Assembly (NCBI GenBank): GCA_018816735.1
Contig: JAHIVH010000129.1
Location: 479-64,478, forward strand
Reading direction: 5' to 3'
Length of the DNA: 64,000 nt
From: Pseudomonadota bacterium
GTDB taxonomy: Bacteria > Desulfobacterota > Desulfobacteria > Desulfobacterales > JAHIVH01
Of the stretch, positions 25,618 to 41,734 are shown one piece after another. Under the pieces are notes generated by a model. It did not search any database and had not been told where the DNA came from. It saw only the letters and a program-made list of their open reading frames with translations. The first letter of the stretch is position 1. Each line of letters opens with the position of its first letter. The position numbers were made by a program, and so were the translations under genes.

Positions 25618-26994
25618 ATGGGATTCAGATTAAAAGGATTTCCGGGAAAAGGCACATTTAAAAGAGGTGTCCATCCACCGGAACGAAAAAATTTATCACA
25701 AGATATATCCATAGAAGTCATTCCGCCACCTGAGAAACTTCTGATACCCTTGCTTCAGAATATTGGGGAGGCCTGTAAAGCCGTTATCGAACCAAAACAG
25801 GAAGTCGTATTCGGGGAAAAAATAGCAGATGCCGATGGCTTTATCTCTGCCCCTCTTCATGCCCCTCTTTCCGGAAAAATCGCAAAGTTTGCCATGACAA
25901 CGCTTCCCAATGGCAGACATGTGAAAGCCATCCAGATAGATGCCCATAAGGAGCAGGTTTCAGAAGATGCGTTATGGCATGATATGTTTTTCAGAGATTG
26001 GCCCAAAGATGTTTACAGCCTGTTTTCTTCGGAAGAAATTTCAAAAAGAATCAGGAACGCCGGCATTGTAGGCCTTGGTGGCGCTGCATTCCCTACCCAT
26101 GTAAAAATCAAGTATAATCAGAAAAAGTCAATCGATGCGCTGCTCGTAAATGGTTGCGAATGCGAGCCCTATCTGACAACAGATTATCGTGTGATGGTTG
26201 AAGCACCGGAGCCCGTCATTACAGGTGCCCTGTTTGCCGCCATGGCGACGAATGCCGGTCAGATTGTCGTTTGCATTGAAGATAATAAACCGCTTGCCGT
26301 TAAAGCCATTTCAAATGCAGCAAAAGGGACCGGAATAAAGGTGGCTGTGCTTAAAACAAAATACCCGCAAGGCAGTGAACGGCATATGATAAAAGCGGTT
26401 ATGAATCGCGTCATCCCTTTAGGAGGGCTTCCGGGAGATGTGGGCGTAGTCGTCAGCAACGTGGCGACGATTGCTGCGGTTGCCCGGGCGGTGCTTTATG
26501 AAAAACCCCTTACGCACAGGGTCGTGTGCGTGACAGGTGGCGGCATAAAAAGACCGGCCAATCTTCTTGTGCCTCTGGGTATGAGCTACAGGGCACTGAT
26601 CGATTATTGCGGCGGCATGACGGAAAATGCTGCAAGAATTTTGTCAGGTGGTCCCATGATGGGATTTTCGTTTACCGATCTTGATATGCCCGTGACTAAA
26701 GGTACAAGCGGCATCACCGTTTTAACCCATGATGAAATAAAACGGGACAAAGAAACCGCGTGTCTTCGATGTGGCAGATGCGTTGATGTCTGCCCAATGG
26801 CTCTGGTCCCGGCACGGCTCGCCCTTGCCGCCAGAAAAAGAGATGTTGAAATGGCAGAGAAATATAACATCATGGGATGCCTTGAAACCGGATGCTGCGG
26901 ATATGTCTGCCCGGCGAACATTCCGCTCATTCAATTAATTCGTGCAGGAAAAGCCATGGTGATGACAAACCGGAAGCTTCAATCGAAAAATTAA
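25618..26994 (+). CDS. rnfC: Rnf complex subunit C
   Basis: 458 aa with 'GLGGAAFPTHVK', 'SGGPMMG', 4Fe-4S motif 'CLRCGRCVDVCP' and 'CCGYVCPANIP'. Confidence 0.93.
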   Translation: MGFRLKGFPGKGTFKRGVHPPERKNLSQDISIEVIPPPEKLLIPLLQNIGEACKAVIEPKQEVVFGEKIADADGFISAPLHAPLSGKIAKFAMTTLPNGRHVKAIQIDAHKEQVSEDALWHDMFFRDWPKDVYSLFSSEEISKRIRNAGIVGLGGAAFPTHVKIKYNQKKSIDALLVNGCECEPYLTTDYRVMVEAPEPVITGALFAAMATNAGQIVVCIEDNKPLAVKAISNAAKGTGIKVAVLKTKYPQGSERHMIKAVMNRVIPLGGLPGDVGVVVSNVATIAAVARAVLYEKPLTHRVVCVTGGGIKRPANLLVPLGMSYRALIDYCGGMTENAARILSGGPMMGFSFTDLDMPVTKGTSGITVLTHDEIKRDKETACLRCGRCVDVCPMALVPARLALAARKRDVEMAEKYNIMGCLETGCCGYVCPANIPLIQLIRAGKAMVMTNRKLQSKN

Positions 26995-27015
26995 CCAAAA
27001 GACATTGAAATTGTT

Positions 27016-28011
27016 ATGACCGAATCGAGCACAAGGGATATACGCACTGATTCAGAAACGAATATCATTCAGGTAATCAGTGTCGCTTCGTCTCCTCATT
27101 TGAAAAATCTTTCCCTGTCATCCAGAAAAATGATGATCGACGTGATGATTGCCCTTTTACCTGTCATGGGTATGGCCATCTATATGTTTAAATGGCTGGT
27201 GGTGAAGCAATTGATCATTGCTGTCGGGTCAACCCTTTCAGCCGAAGCTGTGTTTACCAAAATGCGAAGGAAATCCTTTTCTCTTCCGGATGGTTCGGCA
27301 GGAGTGACCGGCTTGATTTTAGGCCTTTCCATTCCTGTGATTGCGCCGTGGTATGTGGGGGTTATCGGTTCTGTTGTGGCCATAGGCATCGGTAAAGTTA
27401 TTTTCGGCGGTTTGGGGATGAATATTTTTAATCCTGCAATGGTTGGCCGGGCCTTTGTGATGATTGCATTTACAGGCGTTATGGCTGCAGCAGGATATGA
27501 AAACAAACATATTGCTGTTGATGCCATATCCATGGCCACACCGCTTGATGCGTTCAAGCAGTCCGGTTTTGTTACACCCTTAAGGGATCTTTTTTTCGGG
27601 TTCACAAATGGGTCTCCTGGAGAAATCAGTGCGCTTGCCTGTGTTTCAGGCGGTGTTTATCTGTGTTTGAGGAGAACGGCCGCCTGGGAGATTCCACTTG
27701 GCGTCATTCTTTCAGCGTCTGTGATGGGACTATTCTCTGATATGATTCATCCGGATGTGCCTTTTACTTTCCTTCACCACCTGGCTGGTGGGTCACTTTT
27801 GTTCGGCGCATTTTTCATTGCCACTGATCCGGTGACCAGTCCCATTTCAAAAAAAGGGCGGTTTCTCTTTGGCATGGGAATCGGGTTTATTCTGATGATG
27901 CTGAGGTTTTTCAGCGGTTATCCGGAGGGTGTGATGTTTGCGGTGCTGTTCATGAATGCAGTTACACCACTTATAAACCGATGGACGATACCAAAAACGT
28001 TGGGAACCTGA
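27016..28011 (+). CDS. rnfD: Rnf complex subunit D
   Basis: 331 aa and polytopic. NqrB/RnfD-like, with a flavinylation-type 'SMATPL' motif. Confidence 0.9.
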   Translation: MTESSTRDIRTDSETNIIQVISVASSPHLKNLSLSSRKMMIDVMIALLPVMGMAIYMFKWLVVKQLIIAVGSTLSAEAVFTKMRRKSFSLPDGSAGVTGLILGLSIPVIAPWYVGVIGSVVAIGIGKVIFGGLGMNIFNPAMVGRAFVMIAFTGVMAAAGYENKHIAVDAISMATPLDAFKQSGFVTPLRDLFFGFTNGSPGEISALACVSGGVYLCLRRTAAWEIPLGVILSASVMGLFSDMIHPDVPFTFLHHLAGGSLLFGAFFIATDPVTSPISKKGRFLFGMGIGFILMMLRFFSGYPEGVMFAVLFMNAVTPLINRWTIPKTLGT

Positions 28012-28023
28012 TCCAGGAGGAAC

Positions 28024-28686
28024 ATGGAAATGACAGATCGGCTTAATAAGAATTTTCTGGTTCAGGGATGGCTGGTCATTTTGCTCTGCCTGGTATTTGG
28101 AGGTTCCCTTACAGCTGTTCAGTTAACATTATCTCCTGTGATTGAAGCAAACAAGAAAAATGAAATTCTTCAGATAATTCCGGGTCTGATTTCAGAAGAA
28201 AATTCAACCGCCATAAATAAAGAAGCAACGCTGCCATTTACCGTATCACCGTTTTATGTGAACTCTGAAAAACAGGGCCGACACCTGTCCTATGCTGTAT
28301 TTGAAGCAAAAGATAAGGACGGCAATATTTCGGGTTGGGCTGCAAGAGCATCAGGTCAGGGATATGCCGATAAAATTGAACTGCTTTTAGGATTAAACCC
28401 TGAAGCTGAAAAAATTACAGGCCTGTTCATTCTGGAACAGAAGGAAACACCAGGATTGGGAAATAAAATTTCCGAAATCAAATGGCGGGATCAGTTCAAG
28501 GGCAAAAAAACGGATAAGGCCATTTCTGCCATAAAAGGAAAAGCGGTAAACGCAAATGAAATTGACGCCATTACCGGAGCCACGATTTCATCAAAAAGTG
28601 TATGCCGGATCATCAATCAAATGGTCGGAGACATACGGCCACCTTTGAAAATGAAGCTTGAAGAAAGCGTTCATGAAAAAAAATAA
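28024..28686 (+). CDS. rnfG: Rnf complex subunit G (FMN-binding)
   Basis: N-terminal anchor plus 'IDAITGATISSKSV' (the covalent-FMN S/TGAT motif). Confidence 0.9.
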   Translation: MEMTDRLNKNFLVQGWLVILLCLVFGGSLTAVQLTLSPVIEANKKNEILQIIPGLISEENSTAINKEATLPFTVSPFYVNSEKQGRHLSYAVFEAKDKDGNISGWAARASGQGYADKIELLLGLNPEAEKITGLFILEQKETPGLGNKISEIKWRDQFKGKKTDKAISAIKGKAVNANEIDAITGATISSKSVCRIINQMVGDIRPPLKMKLEESVHEKK

Positions 28687-28730
28687 TGGCTTCATTTAAT
28701 TGGGAGCATTGACAGGGTAAAGGAAAAACA

Positions 28731-29366
28731 ATGACAGCCGAACCCACTGCACCGGAAAGATTCATCAGAGGAATCCTTCCTGAGAATCCGACTTACCGCC
28801 AGCTATTAGGACTTTGCCCGACCCTTGCTGTGACGAATAACATGAAATCCGCACTGACCATGGCCGGAGCAGTCCTGTTTGTTCTGTTCTGCGCCAACGT
28901 GATGGTGAGCCTGATACGCAATCTTCTGAAACCCCATCTGAGAATCGTCGCGTTCACCCTTGTCATTGCAGCCTTTGTCACAATCGTTGACCGGTTGCTT
29001 GCCGCTTATATGTATACCATGAGCAAGAATCTCGGTCCCTACATTCCGTTAATTATCGTAAACTGCATCATTATCGGCCGGTGTGAGATCTGCGCATCAA
29101 AAGAATCGGTTTTAAAGGCAGCATCTGATGCCATCGGCCAATCCATAGGGTTTGGGATTGGACTGTCGAGCATCGCTTTTTTCAGGGAAATTATCGGTAC
29201 AGGTATGGTTTTCGGCACAAGAGTGCTTCCGCAAATATGGCCGGATTGGGTTATCATGATTCTGCCCCCAGGCGCGTTTTTTACATTTGGCCTTCTCCTG
29301 GGAAGTGTGAATTATATGGTCAATCGAAAAAACACATCAATAAAAAACAGGGACAGCATGAAATGA
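28731..29366 (+). CDS. rnfE: Rnf complex subunit E
   Basis: 211 aa with '[17 protein letters not shown]', typical of RnfE/NqrD. Its stop overlaps the rnfA start (ATGA). Confidence 0.9.
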
Positions 29367-30064
29367 CCTATATAACCGATATTTTCCTGATAGCTATCAG
29401 CGCGGCACTTATCAATAATTTTGTGCTCTACTATTTTGTAGGGATATGCCCCTTTATCGGTGTATCGAGAAACGTGGATATCGCATTCGGCATGGGCTTT
29501 GCCGTGACGTTTGTCATGACAATCGCCGGTTCTATCAGCTGGGCGATTACCACGTTGGTTCTGGTACCAGGCGCACCTTTTACCCGATTTATAGCCGGTT
29601 TTTTTCTTGACCCCGGACAGGCCGTTCAGATTGACCTCACCACTTTGAGCTATATTGTCTATATTTTTGCCATCGCTTCTTCCGTGCAATTTGTAGAAAT
29701 GTATATTCGAAAGTTTTTCCCGTCACTCTATAAATCGTTTGGTGTGTTTCTACCGCTCATCACAACAAACTGCGCGATTCTATTTGCCTGCCTGACCATT
29801 ATGAGTCATGTGGCCGGTGTTGAAAATCCGGCAGACGTCTGGGGACTTTCAAAGGCGCTTGCGCTTTCCTTTTTTGGTGGTGTCGGGTTTACGATTGCAA
29901 TCGTCATCATGGCCGGTATCCGGGAAGAGCTTGATTTCTGTGATGTGCCTGAATGTTTACAAGGTGCGGCGATTACGCTTATTGTTGCCGGAATACTTGC
30001 CATGGCGTTCATGGGATTTACCGGTGTTGATTCCGGATTGAGAGTCGCTTTGACAGGAGGGTGA
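29363..30064 (+). CDS. rnfA: Rnf complex subunit A
   Basis: I set the start at the ATG at 29363 ([22 protein letters not shown]...). The track ORF's 42-aa extension overlaps rnfE. '[13 protein letters not shown]' is typical of RnfA/NqrE. Confidence 0.9.
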
Positions 30065-30065
30065 T

Positions 30066-30974
30066 ATGGTGATGGTGACCGTCGGTCTTGCAGCCGGTAC
30101 AATGATTTTAATGGCAGTTTTATTTACTTTTATTCTGGGATGGGCAAACAGGGCATTCCATGTTGAGATTGATCCGCGTATAGGAAAGGTGATTGCCGCA
30201 CTTCCAGGCGTGAACTGCGGTGGCTGTGGTTTTGTCGGGTGCGGTGAATATGCGGAGGCCATTGTGCTCGAAAATACACCGGTGAACAAATGCACGGTGG
30301 GAGGAATGAGCTGTGCACTGGCTCTTGGTGATATTATGGGTGTGCGGGTGGATGTTTCCGTTTCCTTGCGGCCCATTGTGCATTGTGGTGCGAGAACAGT
30401 TGACAGACTTGGCAGAAGTGAATACCGGGGAGAAATGATGTGCCGGACAGCCAATCTGGTTGCAGATGTGCAAGGGTGTACCTATGGATGCCTGGGATTT
30501 GGCGATTGTGAACGTGAATGCGATTATGATGCGATTCATGTGATAGATGGGCTTGCAACGGTTGATTATGGCGCATGTGTCGGATGCGGAGCTTGCGCCA
30601 GAGTCTGCCCCAGAAACATTATCACGATCACGCCTTTCAGGTCGAACCGGATTCTTGCGGTTATCTGCTCCAATCATGATGCGGGAAAAGACGTGACAAA
30701 AGTTTGCAAGGTCGGATGCCTGGGATGCCGGGCGTGTTCAAGAATATCGAATCTGTTTGTTGTTGAAAACAACCTGTCCACCTTGAATTATGCTGAATAC
30801 ACGGAAGATCGCATGACGGAGCTGGTTGCTGCAAGCAAACGTTGCCCCCGTCATCGGCTTCAGTTTGTGGGTGAGGGAACCGGAATCGTTCCTGTGACTA
30901 TGGATGATGACAGACCGGACGTGGTTAGGGCTGATTTCAAATCTACAGTCGATGATACTGAATGGCGGGGGTAG
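30066..30974 (+). CDS. rnfB: Rnf complex subunit B, extended poly-ferredoxin form
   Basis: N-terminal TM helix, 'CGGCGFVGCGEYAEA', then several extra Cys clusters ('CTYGCLGFGDCERECD', 'CVGCGACARVCP', 'CKVGCLGCRACS'). Confidence 0.9.
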   Translation: MVMVTVGLAAGTMILMAVLFTFILGWANRAFHVEIDPRIGKVIAALPGVNCGGCGFVGCGEYAEAIVLENTPVNKCTVGGMSCALALGDIMGVRVDVSVSLRPIVHCGARTVDRLGRSEYRGEMMCRTANLVADVQGCTYGCLGFGDCERECDYDAIHVIDGLATVDYGACVGCGACARVCPRNIITITPFRSNRILAVICSNHDAGKDVTKVCKVGCLGCRACSRISNLFVVENNLSTLNYAEYTEDRMTELVAASKRCPRHRLQFVGEGTGIVPVTMDDDRPDVVRADFKSTVDDTEWRG

Positions 30975-37686: not shown

Positions 37687-39378
37687 TCACATATCTGCGG
37701 CCGTAACCCTTTCCAGTTCATCAATGGTGGTAAGTCCGCGCAGCACTTTTTTTAAACCATCGTACCTGAGGGTTTCAAAACCACTTTGTTTGGCCTTTTT
37801 TTCGATTTCTATGATGGAAACGTTTTTGGCCACCATTGACCGGATTTCTTCCGTCATGATAAAGATTTCATGGATGGCTACCCTGCCTGTATATCCGGTG
37901 TGGTTGCAGTCCAGGCATCCTTTGCCTTTATAGAAGGTGACTTTTTTTTGGCCGTTCCAGATGAAATATCGTTCTATTTCGGAAGGATCCGGTTCATACG
38001 ATTCCTTGCATTTGGGGCATATCTGCCGTACAAGGCGCTGGGCCATTACACCTATTATGGAGGGGGCTACAAGAAAAGGCTCTACCCCGATTTCAACCAG
38101 GCGGGTTACTGCCTGAAGGGAATTGTTGGTGTGCATGGTGGCCAGAACAAGGTGACCGGTCAAGGCAGCCTGGGAGGCTATTTTAGCAGTCTCAAGATCA
38201 CGTATCTCGCCGATCAGTATTACATCAGGGTCCTGCCGGAGAAAAGACCTTAAAATTGATGCAAAGTTGAGTTCAACCCCGGGATTAATCTGTACCTGGT
38301 TTACGCCCGGCAATTTGTATTCCACAGGATCTTCAGCGGTCATGATGTTGACTTCCGGCTCGTTCAAATGCTGTAACACGGAAAAAAGGGTCGTTGTCTT
38401 ACCGGAGCCTGTGGGTCCGGTGACAAAAAATACGCCATTAGGCGTGTCAATGATTTTTTTGAGGATATCGATATTTTTCTGAGAAAGTCCCAGCTGTTCA
38501 ACAGTGGGTATGTGCTGTTTGCCTGCCTGCCCCAGAATACGCAAGACCATTTTTTCGCCATGAATCGTGGGGATGGAAGAAAACCTGAAATCTATCGATC
38601 GATTGGAAAGATCAAGGCTGAATCTGCCGTCCTGAGGCCGTCTTTTTTCCGTAATGTCAAGGCCAGCCATCACTTTCATGCAACTGGCAATGGGTGAAAT
38701 AAGTTCACTGCTCAGTTTGATTCTGTCGTTCAGAACCCCATCCACCCGGAATCGAATTCTGACCAGTTTTTCCTGTGATTCGATATGAATATCACTGGCT
38801 TTCTCCTTGATGCCCAGAAGCATGATTGCCCGGCAGAACTCCACGAGTGCTTTATCGCCGGCCATGGCTTTTAATTCTTCAGGGGTTATTTTGTCCGAAC
38901 CGGCAAAAGCATTCTCCATAATATTGTTCATTAAGCCGGATATAGCTTCCTTTGACTGATACTGGACTTCAATGCTGTCTTCGATTTCTTCCGGAAAGGA
39001 AAAGATCATGCTCACTTTTTTGCCTATGAGACTTTCCGCATCTTTTATCGCGTCCAGGTTCATCGGGTTTGCTGTCGCTATAGTTACGGTTCCCTCGATT
39101 TCATAAAGGGGAATCATTTTATGTTTTTTTGCCAAGTCCTGGGGAAGTTTTTTAATGATGGAGGGTTGGAAAAGTGTTTTTGAGAGTTCCACATAAGAAA
39201 CGCCAATGGAATCGCCCCATAATTTCCCTAAAATATTTTTATCGATACCCCCTTTTTTCTTAAGATGCTTTAAAATTTCATAAGTATCATCACTGTATTC
39301 AATCCTCAATTTTTTCACATCATCTTCGGTAAGTATCTTTTTTAAAACAAGAAAGTTCATGAAATTTTGATTTTTCAT
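37687..39378 (-). CDS. GspE/PilB-family secretion ATPase (T2SS/T4P type), orphan
   Basis: Walker A 'GPTGSGKTTTL', 'ILIGEIRD', His box 'TGHLVLATMHTN', tetracysteine 'CPKC...CLDCNHTGYTGR', and a T2SSE_N-like N-terminus. No other T2SS or pilus genes are adjacent. Confidence 0.9.
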   Translation of the reverse strand: MKNQNFMNFLVLKKILTEDDVKKLRIEYSDDTYEILKHLKKKGGIDKNILGKLWGDSIGVSYVELSKTLFQPSIIKKLPQDLAKKHKMIPLYEIEGTVTIATANPMNLDAIKDAESLIGKKVSMIFSFPEEIEDSIEVQYQSKEAISGLMNNIMENAFAGSDKITPEELKAMAGDKALVEFCRAIMLLGIKEKASDIHIESQEKLVRIRFRVDGVLNDRIKLSSELISPIASCMKVMAGLDITEKRRPQDGRFSLDLSNRSIDFRFSSIPTIHGEKMVLRILGQAGKQHIPTVEQLGLSQKNIDILKKIIDTPNGVFFVTGPTGSGKTTTLFSVLQHLNEPEVNIMTAEDPVEYKLPGVNQVQINPGVELNFASILRSFLRQDPDVILIGEIRDLETAKIASQAALTGHLVLATMHTNNSLQAVTRLVEIGVEPFLVAPSIIGVMAQRLVRQICPKCKESYEPDPSEIERYFIWNGQKKVTFYKGKGCLDCNHTGYTGRVAIHEIFIMTEEIRSMVAKNVSIIEIEKKAKQSGFETLRYDGLKKVLRGLTTIDELERVTAADM

Positions 39379-39530
39379 GATGATTGGTTTCTCCTGTCTG
39401 CGTGTTTTTTTTCAAGAAGTTTTTTGATTTCATCCTGCGAAAGAACACCTTTTGTTTTTATGCGCTTATCTCCTTTTTCATCTTCGACAATCTCCTTAAG
39501 CATTTTTTCAAGGTCATATCGTTCAGTCAT
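39375..39530 (-). CDS. Unlisted 51-aa ORF, translationally coupled on both sides, carrying a FliM-N-terminus-like 'LSQDEIKKLL' motif
   Basis: My translation is MTERYDLEKMLKEIVEDEKGDKRIKTKGVLSQDEIKKLLEKKHADRRNQSS. GAGGA SD 8 nt upstream. Its ATG overlaps the hybrid-kinase stop (ATGACTGA) and its TGA overlaps the ATPase ATG (ATGA). Below the track's size cutoff. Confidence 0.55.
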   Translation of the reverse strand: MTERYDLEKMLKEIVEDEKGDKRIKTKGVLSQDEIKKLLEKKHADRRNQSS

Positions 39531-40866
39531 GGGTATTCCTCTTGTTTTTTTTATATTCGGTCCATGTTTGGTTAATCATTTTTTTAATTTCCTGTGAAGG
39601 CGTGTCCTTTCTGATGTAACCGGATGCACCCAATTCAATGCACCTGGAAACGGTCTCATAATCGGATACCGATGTGAGCATGATGACAAATGCATCGGGA
39701 TCAGTCTCCATGATGTCTTTCAAGACGTCATCGCCCGTTTTCCCCGGCATGTTGATGTCAAGAAAAAGGATGTCCGGTTTTTTTTTACGAAACATATGCA
39801 TAACCTGATTCCCATTTTCCGCCTCGCCCACCACCTGGCCATTCATGGATTCAATGTTCTTTTTCATGAGAACGCGGATATGGCGTTCATCATCAGCCAG
39901 GAGCACTTTCAGCTTCCTTTTTTTCTGGCGTGTATCTTCTTCACTTGAAGCGGGATCCGGTTTAGACTCAGCCTCCGGACATTTTTCATCAGAAACAGGA
40001 TGATATGGCAGGACCAGTGAGAAAAGTGAGCCTTGTCCGGGGCTGCTTTTGACCAGGATATCCCCCTGATGGGCTTCGGCAATTTTTTTGGCAATGGAAA
40101 GACCCAGACCGGTACTTTTTTCCCCGCCCGTTGGTTTGACGCTCAAACGCTGAAATTCGCCAAACAGTTTATCCTGCTCTTCTTCGGGAATGCCTGTACC
40201 CTGGTCTTTTATATGAAAAAAGAGCTTTTCATTTTCTGTTTTTACGCTAATCATGACTGTTGTGTTTTCAGGGGAATACTTGATGGCATTTCCGATCAGA
40301 TTATCAATGACCTGGATTATTTTCTGGGTGTCAAGGCTGACCGGACTGAGTTCTTCTATGGAAAATTCGATCTTTATTTTTTTTTTCCGGGAAACGATAT
40401 GGTAGAGTTTGATCCGCTCTTCAACGAGTTTCCCAAAGGACACCGTCTCCAAAACAAGATCCAGTCGGCCACTTTCAATTGCCGAGACATCCAGGAGGTC
40501 ATTTACCAGATTCAACATATCCTGGCTTGCCTTGTGAATAATTGAAATCAGGCTTTTCTGCTCCTGGGACAGCGGATCGGTTTCTTCATCCAAAAGCATT
40601 TCGCTGAACCCTCTGATGGATACCAGAGGTGTTCTCAGATCATGGGCAGCCATCCCCAGAAAACGGTTTTTCACTTTGTTCAGTTCAAACAGTTTCTTCT
40701 CTGATATGGCGTAATTATCAATTATTTTTTTTAACAGCCTGTTTAAGGTTTCCGTATCATTTTCAAAAGCCCTAAAGTTTACAAGCATAATGATCATCTC
40801 TGATGGCTTGAGTTCATTTTTTAAAAGTTTTTCAAGATGAATATAAAACGCTTGTTTGCTATTCAT
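39523..40866 (-). CDS. Hybrid sensor histidine kinase with a C-terminal receiver domain
   Basis: H-box 'MAAHDLRTPL', 'IGNAIKYS', 'DQGTGIPEE', 'GLGLSIAK'. Receiver 'KVLLADDERHIR...KPDILFLDINMPGKTG'. I placed the start at the ATG at 40866 (MNSKQAF...), overlapping the upstream stop. The track extends to 40941. Confidence 0.88.
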   Translation of the reverse strand: MNSKQAFYIHLEKLLKNELKPSEMIIMLVNFRAFENDTETLNRLLKKIIDNYAISEKKLFELNKVKNRFLGMAAHDLRTPLVSIRGFSEMLLDEETDPLSQEQKSLISIIHKASQDMLNLVNDLLDVSAIESGRLDLVLETVSFGKLVEERIKLYHIVSRKKKIKIEFSIEELSPVSLDTQKIIQVIDNLIGNAIKYSPENTTVMISVKTENEKLFFHIKDQGTGIPEEEQDKLFGEFQRLSVKPTGGEKSTGLGLSIAKKIAEAHQGDILVKSSPGQGSLFSLVLPYHPVSDEKCPEAESKPDPASSEEDTRQKKRKLKVLLADDERHIRVLMKKNIESMNGQVVGEAENGNQVMHMFRKKKPDILFLDINMPGKTGDDVLKDIMETDPDAFVIMLTSVSDYETVSRCIELGASGYIRKDTPSQEIKKMINQTWTEYKKNKRNTHD

Positions 40867-41734
40867 TGCTGCGGAACCTTTCAAGAAGGGGGTTAATATT
40901 TCCCAGTTCACCATAGGGCCTGTCATCCAGTATCCCGTCAATTCCCACTTTTTTGAGCTTCACCAGTTTGTTGAACATAAAAACGATATCCTCCGTGTTA
41001 AAGATGCAGCTTCCATGCTGAGGAGCAATCTTGGTAAACGGAATGGTTGCCATTGTTTCAAGAGCATGAATCAGCGATCTTTCGCAGGGCATCATCATTT
41101 TGTGAAACTTGAGTATTTCCCTGACATGGCAATAGTCTTCATTGAGCGGGCATTTGTCGTAGTTCTCACAGATCCTGCATTCTTTTTTAATTTCAAGGAA
41201 AAGTTGCCACTTGCTTCCATAACTGCCGAAAAGATCGCTTGAGAACATGACTCCGGATTTCGAATCAAAGGTCACAAAACTACCACCCAAATGCGCATAA
41301 GGTGTTGAATAGAAGGCAAGCTTTCTTCCTGATGCAAAGGCAAAGTTGTACCCAAGAGTTTCAACAGACACGATTTTTGAAGACAACGAGTAATGCCTTA
41401 TAAACATGCTATTTTCTTCCTTTGAAATAATTTTTAAATCATCTCTGTCAATGATGTCTTCATAGTTTGAAACGCTGCCACACAAATCAGGGTCGTAATG
41501 CTGATAGATCAAGGCGCAAATTGATTTAGGCGTGATTCCTGTCTGAAGGATTTTCGTCATTACAGTCGGAAAATCCGGACGACTGCCCCCGTCTATCACC
41601 ACAGCCTCTTCACCGTCGATGATCAGGTAGGGGTTGCAGTGGAGGCCCTCTTGCGTGTCATTAAAGCCCACCCAAAAAACGCCATCAGCAATCTCAACGG
41701 CCCTGTCATAGTTTTCTTTGTCTCTGTTAATCAT
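40859..41734 (-). CDS. Metallo-beta-lactamase-fold, flavodiiron/ODP-like di-iron domain protein with a Cys-rich C-terminal part
   Basis: 'GVFWVGFND...CNPYLIIDGEEAVVIDGG', 'STPYAHLGGSFVTFDSKSGVMFSSDLFGS' and 'IAPQHGS' follow the FDP di-iron domain pattern. The first ligand motif is 'QHYDPDL' rather than H-x-E-x-D-H. 'CRICENYDKCPLNEDYCH' follows. Confidence 0.65.
   Translation of the reverse strand: MINRDKENYDRAVEIADGVFWVGFNDTQEGLHCNPYLIIDGEEAVVIDGGSRPDFPTVMTKILQTGITPKSICALIYQHYDPDLCGSVSNYEDIIDRDDLKIISKEENSMFIRHYSLSSKIVSVETLGYNFAFASGRKLAFYSTPYAHLGGSFVTFDSKSGVMFSSDLFGSYGSKWQLFLEIKKECRICENYDKCPLNEDYCHVREILKFHKMMMPCERSLIHALETMATIPFTKIAPQHGSCIFNTEDIVFMFNKLVKLKKVGIDGILDDRPYGELGNINPLLERFRSNE

Follow-up and report, generated by a model that had tools for sequence, protein, structure and literature searches.

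A conserved small protein with a FliM-like motif, encoded between a CheY-like receiver and a PilB/GspE-like ATPase

Beyond a few model systems, little is understood about how phosphorylation signalling reaches the ATPases of type IV pili and type II secretion systems. The N-terminal peptide of FliM (FliM-N) binds the groove between helices alpha4 and alpha5 of CheY, and 'EIDALL' is the conserved motif with which FliM and FliY bind phosphorylated CheY (CheY~P) (PMC9126983). The archaeal CheY-CheF-ArlCDE system links a CheY-type regulator by a dedicated adaptor to a motor of the type-IV-filament class (PMC7534055; PMC9126983); this adaptor, CheF, is large, dimeric and of the DUF439 type, and it contacts CheY close to the phosphorylation site rather than in the alpha4-alpha5 groove (PMC9126983). 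For the extension ATPase PilB, the cofactors PilZ-FimX, and cyclic di-GMP (c-di-GMP) on the MshEN domain, act on the N-terminal domain (PMC11656802), and the terms 'small protein' and 'adaptor' are absent from the review that describes them. Cyanobacterial PATAN-REC regulators of the PixG/TaxP type act on the motor of type IV pili through protein-protein interaction, according to the titles and abstract openings of the reports on them (bioRxiv 10.1101/2021.06.11.447907; PMC11181946). An ODP protein serves as the oxygen sensor in Treponema denticola chemotaxis (PMC7666581). Here we describe a protein of 51 amino acids (aa), the micropeptide, encoded by a small open reading frame (ORF) in a 64,000-nucleotide stretch of contig JAHIVH010000129.1 from a Pseudomonadota bacterium (hereafter the window). 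The ORF is a genuine protein-coding gene under purifying selection, and the micropeptide is best explained, as far as sequence and gene order allow, as the third subunit of a conserved output module that also comprises a CheY-like receiver and a PilB/GspE-like ATPase.

The module lies on the minus strand and is listed here from its first gene onward.

40859..41734, minus strand: diiron protein of the oxygen-binding ODP family, first gene of the module (Pfam ODP, E=2.3e-50)
39523..40941, minus strand: hybrid histidine kinase with a C-terminal CheY-like receiver (Pfam HisKA 91-158, HATPase_c 204-313, Response_reg 346-457)
about 39571-39906, minus strand: receiver domain (Pfam Response_reg, E=4e-26)
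39537-39541, minus strand: Shine-Dalgarno sequence GAGGA, 6 nucleotides (nt) 5' of the micropeptide ATG at 39530-39528
39375..39530, minus strand: micropeptide gene, an ATG-initiated 51-aa ORF, MTERYDLEKMLKEIVEDEKGDKRIKTKGVLSQDEIKKLLEKKHADRRNQSS
39477..39524, minus strand: motif 1 (helix 1, acidic), residues 3-18, ERYDLEKMLKEIVEDE, the best-conserved part of the family
39414..39443, minus strand: motif 2 (start of helix 2), the FliM-like stretch, residues 30-39, LSQDEIKKLL
39378..39413, minus strand: basic C-terminal tail, EKKHADRRNQSS, Lys/Arg-rich throughout the family and variable in sequence
37687..39378, minus strand: PilB/GspE-superfamily ATPase, 563 aa, with an MshEN-type N-domain (Pfam T2SSE, E=7.6e-129; MshEN, E=1.3e-13)

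At its 5' end the micropeptide ORF overlaps the stop of the kinase/receiver ORF by 8 nt, and at its 3' end it overlaps the start of the ATPase ORF by 4 nt (ATGA). A first-pass annotation of the window, made from the sequence alone, had noticed both overlaps and the ORF's own Shine-Dalgarno sequence, and our reading of the sequence bears this out. The same annotation had called the ORF unannotated, which is incorrect: the identical 51-aa protein is held at NCBI as 'hypothetical protein KJ737_26250' from a Proteobacteria metagenome-assembled genome (MAG). An exact match of the window peptide had no record in the contig index.

Because a single-sequence search with the 51-aa protein returned only the identical protein itself, the family was reached through its ATPase neighbours. 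The closest relatives of the ATPase, at 55-65% identity, come mostly from Desulfobacterales-type MAGs, with additional ones from Desulfobotulus mexicanus and a Nitrospirae MAG. We examined six such relatives on their contigs, and all six loci consist of a ~130-aa single-domain receiver, a called gene of 45-66 aa and the ATPase. The small proteins of these loci are homologous to the window ORF. The syntenic small ORFs were collected and a 7-sequence profile was built, which retrieved 38 family members. An exhaustive search with a family profile, run over 1.84 billion cluster representatives, then gave 546 matches at E<=1e-3, almost all of them 44-67 aa long, of which 123 also pass E<=1e-10. The family includes proteins annotated as Desulfobacterales-type, Nitrospirae and Lentisphaerae, and the window protein aligns with the family profiles over its full length at 66-81 bits.

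Selection on the reading frame was assessed with 25 codon-aligned genes. The mean pairwise nucleotide identity at codon positions 1, 2 and 3 is 0.60, 0.69 and 0.41, respectively, and the ratio of nonsynonymous to synonymous substitution rates (dN/dS) is 0.12-0.31 for close pairs in which dS is unsaturated. Loss of the frame in homologous loci, which the first-pass annotation had named as the finding that would speak against its proposal, is not what we see, because the profile, codon-position and dN/dS evidence shows that the frame is kept. An RNA element in place of a gene was rejected, given that Rfam has no match at the site and that the codon-position pattern is of the coding type. With high probability, the ORF encodes a functional protein of the receiver/ATPase module. 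Pfam and NCBIfam contain no model of the family, and full-text literature searches returned nothing on it; weak Pfam matches of the window peptide to DUF7181 and DUF3781 (E=0.02-0.12) are far below the cut-offs and were dismissed. The micropeptide family is new and uncharacterised, and its stand-alone form and its pilus/secretion-ATPase context are new as well.

The gene order was compared across 24 related loci, 6 of them found via the ATPase and 18 found independently in a metagenome scan seeded with the N-terminal motif of the peptide only. A homologous receiver lies upstream in 23/23 loci whose contig reaches that far, and the ATPase lies downstream in 23/23 loci by the same measure. The association of the ORF with both receiver and ATPase, as claimed from the window, therefore holds: they are constant neighbours in all 24 loci wherever the contigs reach. 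A histidine kinase directly precedes the receiver in 11 loci, and in 6 of these (L036, L038, L041, L044, L049 and L053) an ODP gene is visible ahead of the kinase. These six show the order ODP-kinase-receiver-peptide, followed by the ATPase where the contig reaches it, and this matches the five-gene order seen in the window, except that kinase and receiver are encoded separately. The two are separate in most of the related loci. Kinases of another type, or located elsewhere, are found in L032, L033, L037 and L040. Receiver, peptide and ATPase form the constant core, and the input kinases vary.

The junctions within this core are tight. In 19 of 22 loci, the stop of the peptide and the start of the ATPase overlap (as ATGA, GTGA, TAATG or longer overlaps of up to 41 nt), and the distance from the receiver stop to the peptide start is -8 to +17 nt in most loci. 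Most micropeptide homologues are also preceded by GGAG/AGGAG-like sequences. To judge from these junctions, the micropeptide is translationally coupled to the ATPase.

Two kinds of rearranged locus were found. In L056-L058, the peptide is fused via a Pro-rich linker of ~90 aa to the N-terminus of a second, PilT-like MshEN/T2SSE ATPase, which makes a protein of 514 aa (P0277). This gene was read on 6 contigs, from which three places in three assemblies are shown. It opens an operon and is followed by the ODP gene, the kinase, the receiver, 70 nt without a small ORF and an orthologue of the window ATPase. The second rearrangement, in L060 and L061 (a Lentisphaerae MAG; L060 554-5335), places the peptide across the receiver stop with an overlap of 8 nt; downstream of the peptide, two prepilin-type (N_methyl) genes and a 586-aa gene intervene before a 698-aa MshEN/T2SSE ATPase. 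These loci show that the peptide is separable from the ATPase or from the receiver, with all three still in one operon, and the pilin-like genes of L060/L061 tie the module to a type IV filament machine.

Some details of these loci were noted separately. The stretch 6001-11523 of L056 holds two ATPases, the PilT-like one with the fused micropeptide and a PilB-like one after ODP, kinase and receiver; one phospho-signal might there choose between two motors. In L060, the 586-aa protein has no Pfam match, and the 698-aa ATPase carries an extra N-terminal region that looks membrane-associated. L059 (504-770), on a contig of only 1 kb, encodes P0259 (88 aa), a micropeptide homologue that runs into the start of an MshEN-type helix (LGEALEREGLITGEELNRV) and then stops. 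Either a frameshift has disrupted another type of ATPase fusion here, or P0259 is a pseudogene. A contig scan with the ATPase gave only ATPases of ~35-45% identity. Several loci from Omnitrophota and Planctomycetales were considered as orthologous modules and rejected, since their receiver lies beside the ATPase without a small ORF.

The anatomy of the family was read from an alignment of 148 sequences, and the motif statistics are from 150 family members.

Overall: 44-70 aa, with N-terminal motif 1, a variable linker, motif 2 and a Lys/Arg-rich tail
Motif 1: acidic, consensus M-x-E-K-[YF]-D-L-x-x-M-L-x-E-I-x-E-D-E, also written EK[YF]DLxxMLKEIxEDE
Linker: 8-12 variable residues, with low AlphaFold2 confidence
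Motif 2: consensus h-S(88%)-Q(98%)-[DE]-[DE]-I(99%)-[KQR]-[KR]-[ML]-[LIVM]-x-x-[KR]
Tail: Lys/Arg-rich and variable

L7, L11, E13 and I14 of motif 1 are near-invariant in this alignment (A3), as is D6 in the family alignment A2. Position +11 of motif 2 is Lys or Arg in 93% of members. AlphaFold2, run with the family alignment, places one helix at residues 7-21 and another at 32-50, separated by the low-confidence linker. The predicted local distance difference test score is 83-86 for helix 1, 83-88 for the helices overall and 80 on average, and the predicted template modelling score is 0.33. The micropeptide is thus predicted to be two helices without a compact fold, and both this and the low template score are as expected for a peptide that folds on its partners. 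In the predicted helix 2, S31 sits at the N-cap with a hydrophobic residue before it, and I35, L38 and L39 lie on one face. Their spacing (i, i+3, i+4) is the same as that of I11, L14 and L15 of FliM.

The upstream protein ends in a CheY-like receiver, as the first-pass annotation had stated: a Response_reg domain is present, and the best matches among solved structures are CheY proteins, with the archaeal CheY 6er7 on top, followed by 1tmy and 4iga (T. maritima CheY). We take 4iga to be the FliM-peptide complex of Ahn et al. 2013. Aligned to E. coli CheY, the receiver has the acidic pocket (DD) and the equivalents of D57, T87, Y106 and K109. Its alpha4-beta5-alpha5 region is strongly conserved among 23 orthologous receivers, as follows in CheY numbering.

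I95: V in 87%
A103: A in 100%
Y106: Y in 96%
K109 onward: K-D-T-P for the usual K-P (K 100%, D 96%, T 100%, P 96%)
T115: E in 96%
K119: M, I or L, together 96%
K122: E or D, together 78%
F124: W in 91%

In structure 1F4V of Lee et al. 2001, CheY K119 and K122 reportedly contact acidic or polar FliM residues. The replacement of K119 and K122 in the receiver family, together with a peptide that is basic where FliM is acidic, amounts to a charge reversal that would be compatible with use of the same groove. The receivers linked to the peptide (window 39571-39906; L031-L056 and L060) form a subfamily with K-D-[TS]-P after beta5 and E-M-K-K-h-I-K-E-x-W in alpha5. Omnitrophota receivers beside ATPases that lack the peptide carry the ordinary K-P-F. 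The idea that the peptide is a copy of receiver alpha5 was suggested by TPSQEIKKMI in the window receiver and was rejected, because the SQ is not kept in its orthologues (TP[IL]xEMKK[LI]I). Deviant peptides (L043, P0157: LSRDGLKK) showed no clear pattern of co-variation with their receivers, the cases being too few.

The ATPase is, by sequence, assigned to the T2SSE superfamily only, and among PilB/GspE-superfamily proteins it belongs to a clade of its own. Its scores fall short of the NCBIfam equivalog cut-offs for both PilB (554.9 vs 675.65 bits) and GspE (561.9 vs 630.25 bits), and its matches in the PDB are to PilF, PilB and GspE, at about 1e-126 to 1e-115. The MshEN c-di-GMP motif, reportedly described by Wang et al. 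2016 (cited in PMC11656802), has R-L-G/G/Q residues that are missing from the first ~58 residues of the ATPase across the clade. An input other than c-di-GMP is therefore plausible for this N-terminus. The clade also carries the signature LGKLWGDSIGVSYV[DN]LxKTLFQ.

Taken together, a receiver-to-ATPase adaptor is our best reading of the micropeptide, and one that we put at somewhat less than an even chance. The ODP protein, which is likely the sensor partner of the kinase, would sense O2 or a related redox signal and set the activity of the kinase, and the kinase would phosphorylate the CheY-like receiver. The alpha4-beta5-alpha5 face of the receiver (the alpha4-alpha5 groove) would bind micropeptide helix 2 with a geometry like that of CheY~P on the FliM N-terminal helix. 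The acidic helix 1, the basic tail or both would hold the micropeptide on the N-terminal domain of the ATPase, and receiver phosphorylation would thereby alter the activity or the localisation of a type-IV-filament ATPase. We infer the binding contacts, the phospho-dependence and the direction of the effect; the coding conservation, the three-way co-inheritance, the translational coupling and the linker fusion to an ATPase are seen in the sequences themselves.

The resemblance to FliM lies in motif 2. LSQDEIKKLL is identical at 7 of 10 positions to residues 6-15 of E. coli FliM, LSQAEIDALL (FliM taken from NC_000913.3). When the 64-kb window is translated in all six frames, LSQxEIxxLL in its strict form is matched a single time, within the micropeptide ORF; about 1e-3 chance matches per window would be expected by our own estimate from rough amino-acid frequencies. 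At the motif-2 positions, the hidden Markov model (HMM) of the family gives 5.3 bits for E. coli FliM (verified sequence), and 12.2 bits for T. maritima FliM and 11.4 bits for B. subtilis FliY. Against a background of 375,675 residues, taken from all the DNA analysed, the HMM reaches 8.8 and 5.7 bits for its best unrelated matches, and the 5.7-bit match is the ATPase's own N-terminal helix, KKILTQKDIHNLLEKY. The motif stands at residues 30-39 of a stand-alone 51-aa protein with no FliM/CheC domain after it, and no fli or che genes are found in the core module of the window or of the related loci. Three of five features of FliM/FliY docking peptides are absent, namely the position in a switch protein, profile homology and a flagellar context. 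The FliM resemblance is real at the motif level, but it is not evidence of FliM-family membership.

Several observations weigh against the adaptor. The LSQxEIxxLL match on which the first-pass annotation had built is present in the window peptide but is not conserved in the family, as only 3 of the 150 members fit it. The Asp-Ala of the FliM 'EIDALL' is replaced by Lys, Gln or Arg and then Lys or Arg in the family (Lys-Lys in the window). Neither the peptide nor the 38 family members gave a Pfam, NCBIfam or PDB match to FliM/FliY at E<=10, and by the family HMM E. coli FliM scores no better than the ATPase N-terminal helix. A pattern of the form h-[ST]-x-x-[DE]-h is a generic hydrophobic-staple or capping-box (N-cap) start of a helix, and the FliM resemblance may be convergent or trivial because h-S-x-x-E-h is such a pattern. 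Furthermore, motif 1 is conserved at least as well as motif 2, and its conservation is not explained by the FliM analogy. Argued from analogy, FliM-like docking of motif 2 on the receiver is thus possible but doubtful.

The gene fusions and the Omnitrophota loci also count against an adaptor, and they lead to the strongest alternative, in which the micropeptide belongs to the ATPase only, as a regulatory or structural subunit. It would then work as an N-terminal extension that is encoded separately and that binds the degenerate MshEN-like N-domain or makes it complete, and the receiver would act on the ATPase directly or on another target, without contacting the peptide. Among the best 150 of the 546 profile matches, which were inspected for fusions, there are none to receivers and fusions to T2SSE ATPases only, so the fusions also fit a partnership with the ATPase alone. 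P0277 is a natural fusion to an ATPase N-terminus, P0259 is a possible second one, and the stop/start overlap in 19/22 loci is with the ATPase. The N-terminal helix of the ATPase (KKILTxxDxxxLLEKY) matches motif 2 at the 5.7 bits given above, both being helices of the form h-[ST]-x-[DE]-[DE]-h-x-x-L. In the Omnitrophota/Planctomycetales loci, a ~40%-identical ATPase directly follows a canonical receiver (K-P-F) with no small ORF, so in general receiver and ATPase can be neighbours without the peptide. However, the peptide of L060/L061 stays beside the receiver with its 8-nt overlap, four genes upstream of the ATPase. In L056, the peptide is missing ahead of the orthologous PilB-like ATPase and is found on a different, PilT-like ATPase, so it is not specific to one ATPase N-domain. 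The peptide also always co-occurs with one receiver subfamily, K-D-[TS]-P, and Pfam MshEN (PF05157) does not match it at E<=1. We consider an ATPase-only subunit unlikely.

Less probable still is an action on the receiver only, in which the micropeptide would block dimerisation via the alpha4-beta5-alpha5 face, stabilise or destabilise the phosphorylated state, or modulate phosphate flow, with no bridge to the ATPase. The strict co-occurrence with K-D-T-P receivers, also where the ATPase is distant, would fit this, as would the frequent overlap of the peptide start with the receiver stop and the high conservation of the receiver alpha4-beta5-alpha5 region. The long-linker fusion to an ATPase and the near-universal translational coupling argue instead for a physical association with the ATPase. 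Phosphatases of the CheZ type carry a D-x-x-x-Q catalytic motif and those of the CheC type E-x-x-N. No CheZ-type or CheC/CheX-type catalytic motif is apparent in the family alignments, and a CheZ/CheC-type phosphatase was rejected because neither D-x-x-x-Q nor E-x-x-N is conserved in them. A micropeptide that serves the receiver alone is improbable.

Finally, it is hardly credible that the ORF has no protein function and is a chance ORF or a translation-coupling spacer with a coincidental FliM-like motif: it is very short, rich in lysine and glutamate in an AT-rich genome, overlaps both neighbours and matched only itself in the single-sequence search, but its amino-acid sequence is conserved in >500 clusters with dN/dS well below 1 and a clear third-position excess of change, it is kept when fused to another gene or moved, and Rfam has no match at the site.

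Returning to the adaptor, the micropeptide as a coupling element would be a minimal and testable interface between signalling and motor, made of three small proteins or domains. It would extend the principle of CheY-peptide docking beyond flagella and would suggest a route by which strict anaerobes tie pilus or secretion activity to oxygen exposure. A bolder form, drawn by analogy and in our view questionable, makes the micropeptide a portable, free-standing FliM-type CheY~P docking helix. It would bring a single-domain receiver, once phosphorylated, to a PilB/GspE-like (or PilT-like) ATPase that has lost the binding of c-di-GMP by its MshEN domain. If this were true, an ODP-kinase-receiver oxygen pathway would directly switch a type IV filament motor in anaerobes, and a flagellar-style 'switch peptide' would have been reused for a pilus or secretion machine. 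The case also illustrates how gene-length cut-offs hide conserved subunits.

Motifs of this kind also occur outside the family. The best non-family matches in the whole protein universe carry tandem 'MSQDDIEKLLAA' or 'ISQDDIDRLL'. The strongest of these profile matches (P0160-P0163, P0165, P0168 and P0181) have 4-11 tandem copies of PSGGKMSQDDIEKMLAA behind a conserved N-domain of ~150 aa. P0171 and P0254 are membrane proteins with many 'ISQDDIDRLL' repeats, and the C-terminus of P0171 is weakly FliL-like (Pfam E=6e-4). The gene for P0160 (L062 6001-7647) lies between a GGDEF gene and a RelA_SpoT gene, and no flagellar or chemotaxis genes were seen near it. The tandem-repeat proteins could be multivalent arrays of CheY-docking-type motifs; if the portable docking helix were real, the SQDDIEKLL-repeat proteins would be multivalent scaffolds for receivers.

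The start of the kinase ORF is uncertain. In its longest form, with a TTG start, it overlaps the ODP gene by 83 nt (40859-40941, minus strand). An internal ATG (residue 26, ~40866) would reduce this to 8 nt, as at the kinase/peptide junction, and the ODP/kinase overlap in L036 is 11 nt. The internal ATG near 40866 is probably the true start.

Around the ATPase module, the window contains an Rnf operon, an MMPL transporter, a SurA-like isomerase, CspA and genes of acyl-CoA metabolism; no PilC/GspF (platform) or pilin gene lies next to the ATPase. The Rnf operon (25618-30974, plus strand) looks complete, with RnfC/D/G/E/A/B-type genes. It is followed by an amine-oxidase-like flavoprotein, the MMPL/sterol-sensing-domain transporter, the SurA-like peptidyl-prolyl isomerase and the cold-shock protein. 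The Rnf operon and its neighbours fit an anaerobic genome of the Desulfobacterota type.

Compared with the described systems, the micropeptide shares with the FliM/FliY N-terminal peptide a short amphipathic helix that opens with h-S-Q; an acidic residue and an invariant Ile come next, with two hydrophobic residues at i+3/i+4. Its CheY-like partner is encoded next to it, and in one lineage a long flexible linker joins it to the N-terminal end of a motor protein, in the manner of FliM-N. Unlike the FliM/FliY peptide, it is a stand-alone protein of ~50 aa with the motif in its C-terminal half and with a second, better conserved acidic motif, and it lacks the FliM middle domain, the flagellar context and profile-level homology. 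Its presumed target is a PilB/GspE-type ATPase and not the flagellar C-ring. Known PilB cofactors resemble the proposed arrangement as accessory inputs on the ATPase N-terminal domain; they differ in being c-di-GMP-based and in consisting of proteins much larger than a 50-aa peptide, whereas the ATPase clade described here lacks the c-di-GMP-binding residues. PATAN-REC regulators, as far as titles and abstract openings tell, are likewise response regulators of sensory pathways that act on the type IV pilus motor, and no separate peptide appears in those titles and openings. Their motor contact is attributed to the PATAN domain on the regulator itself. Archaeal CheY-CheF-ArlCDE, with its adaptor between a CheY-type regulator and a filament motor, offers a functional precedent, and the top PDB match of the receiver is an archaeal CheY. 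CheF has no sequence relation to the micropeptide, and the system described here is bacterial and without che genes.

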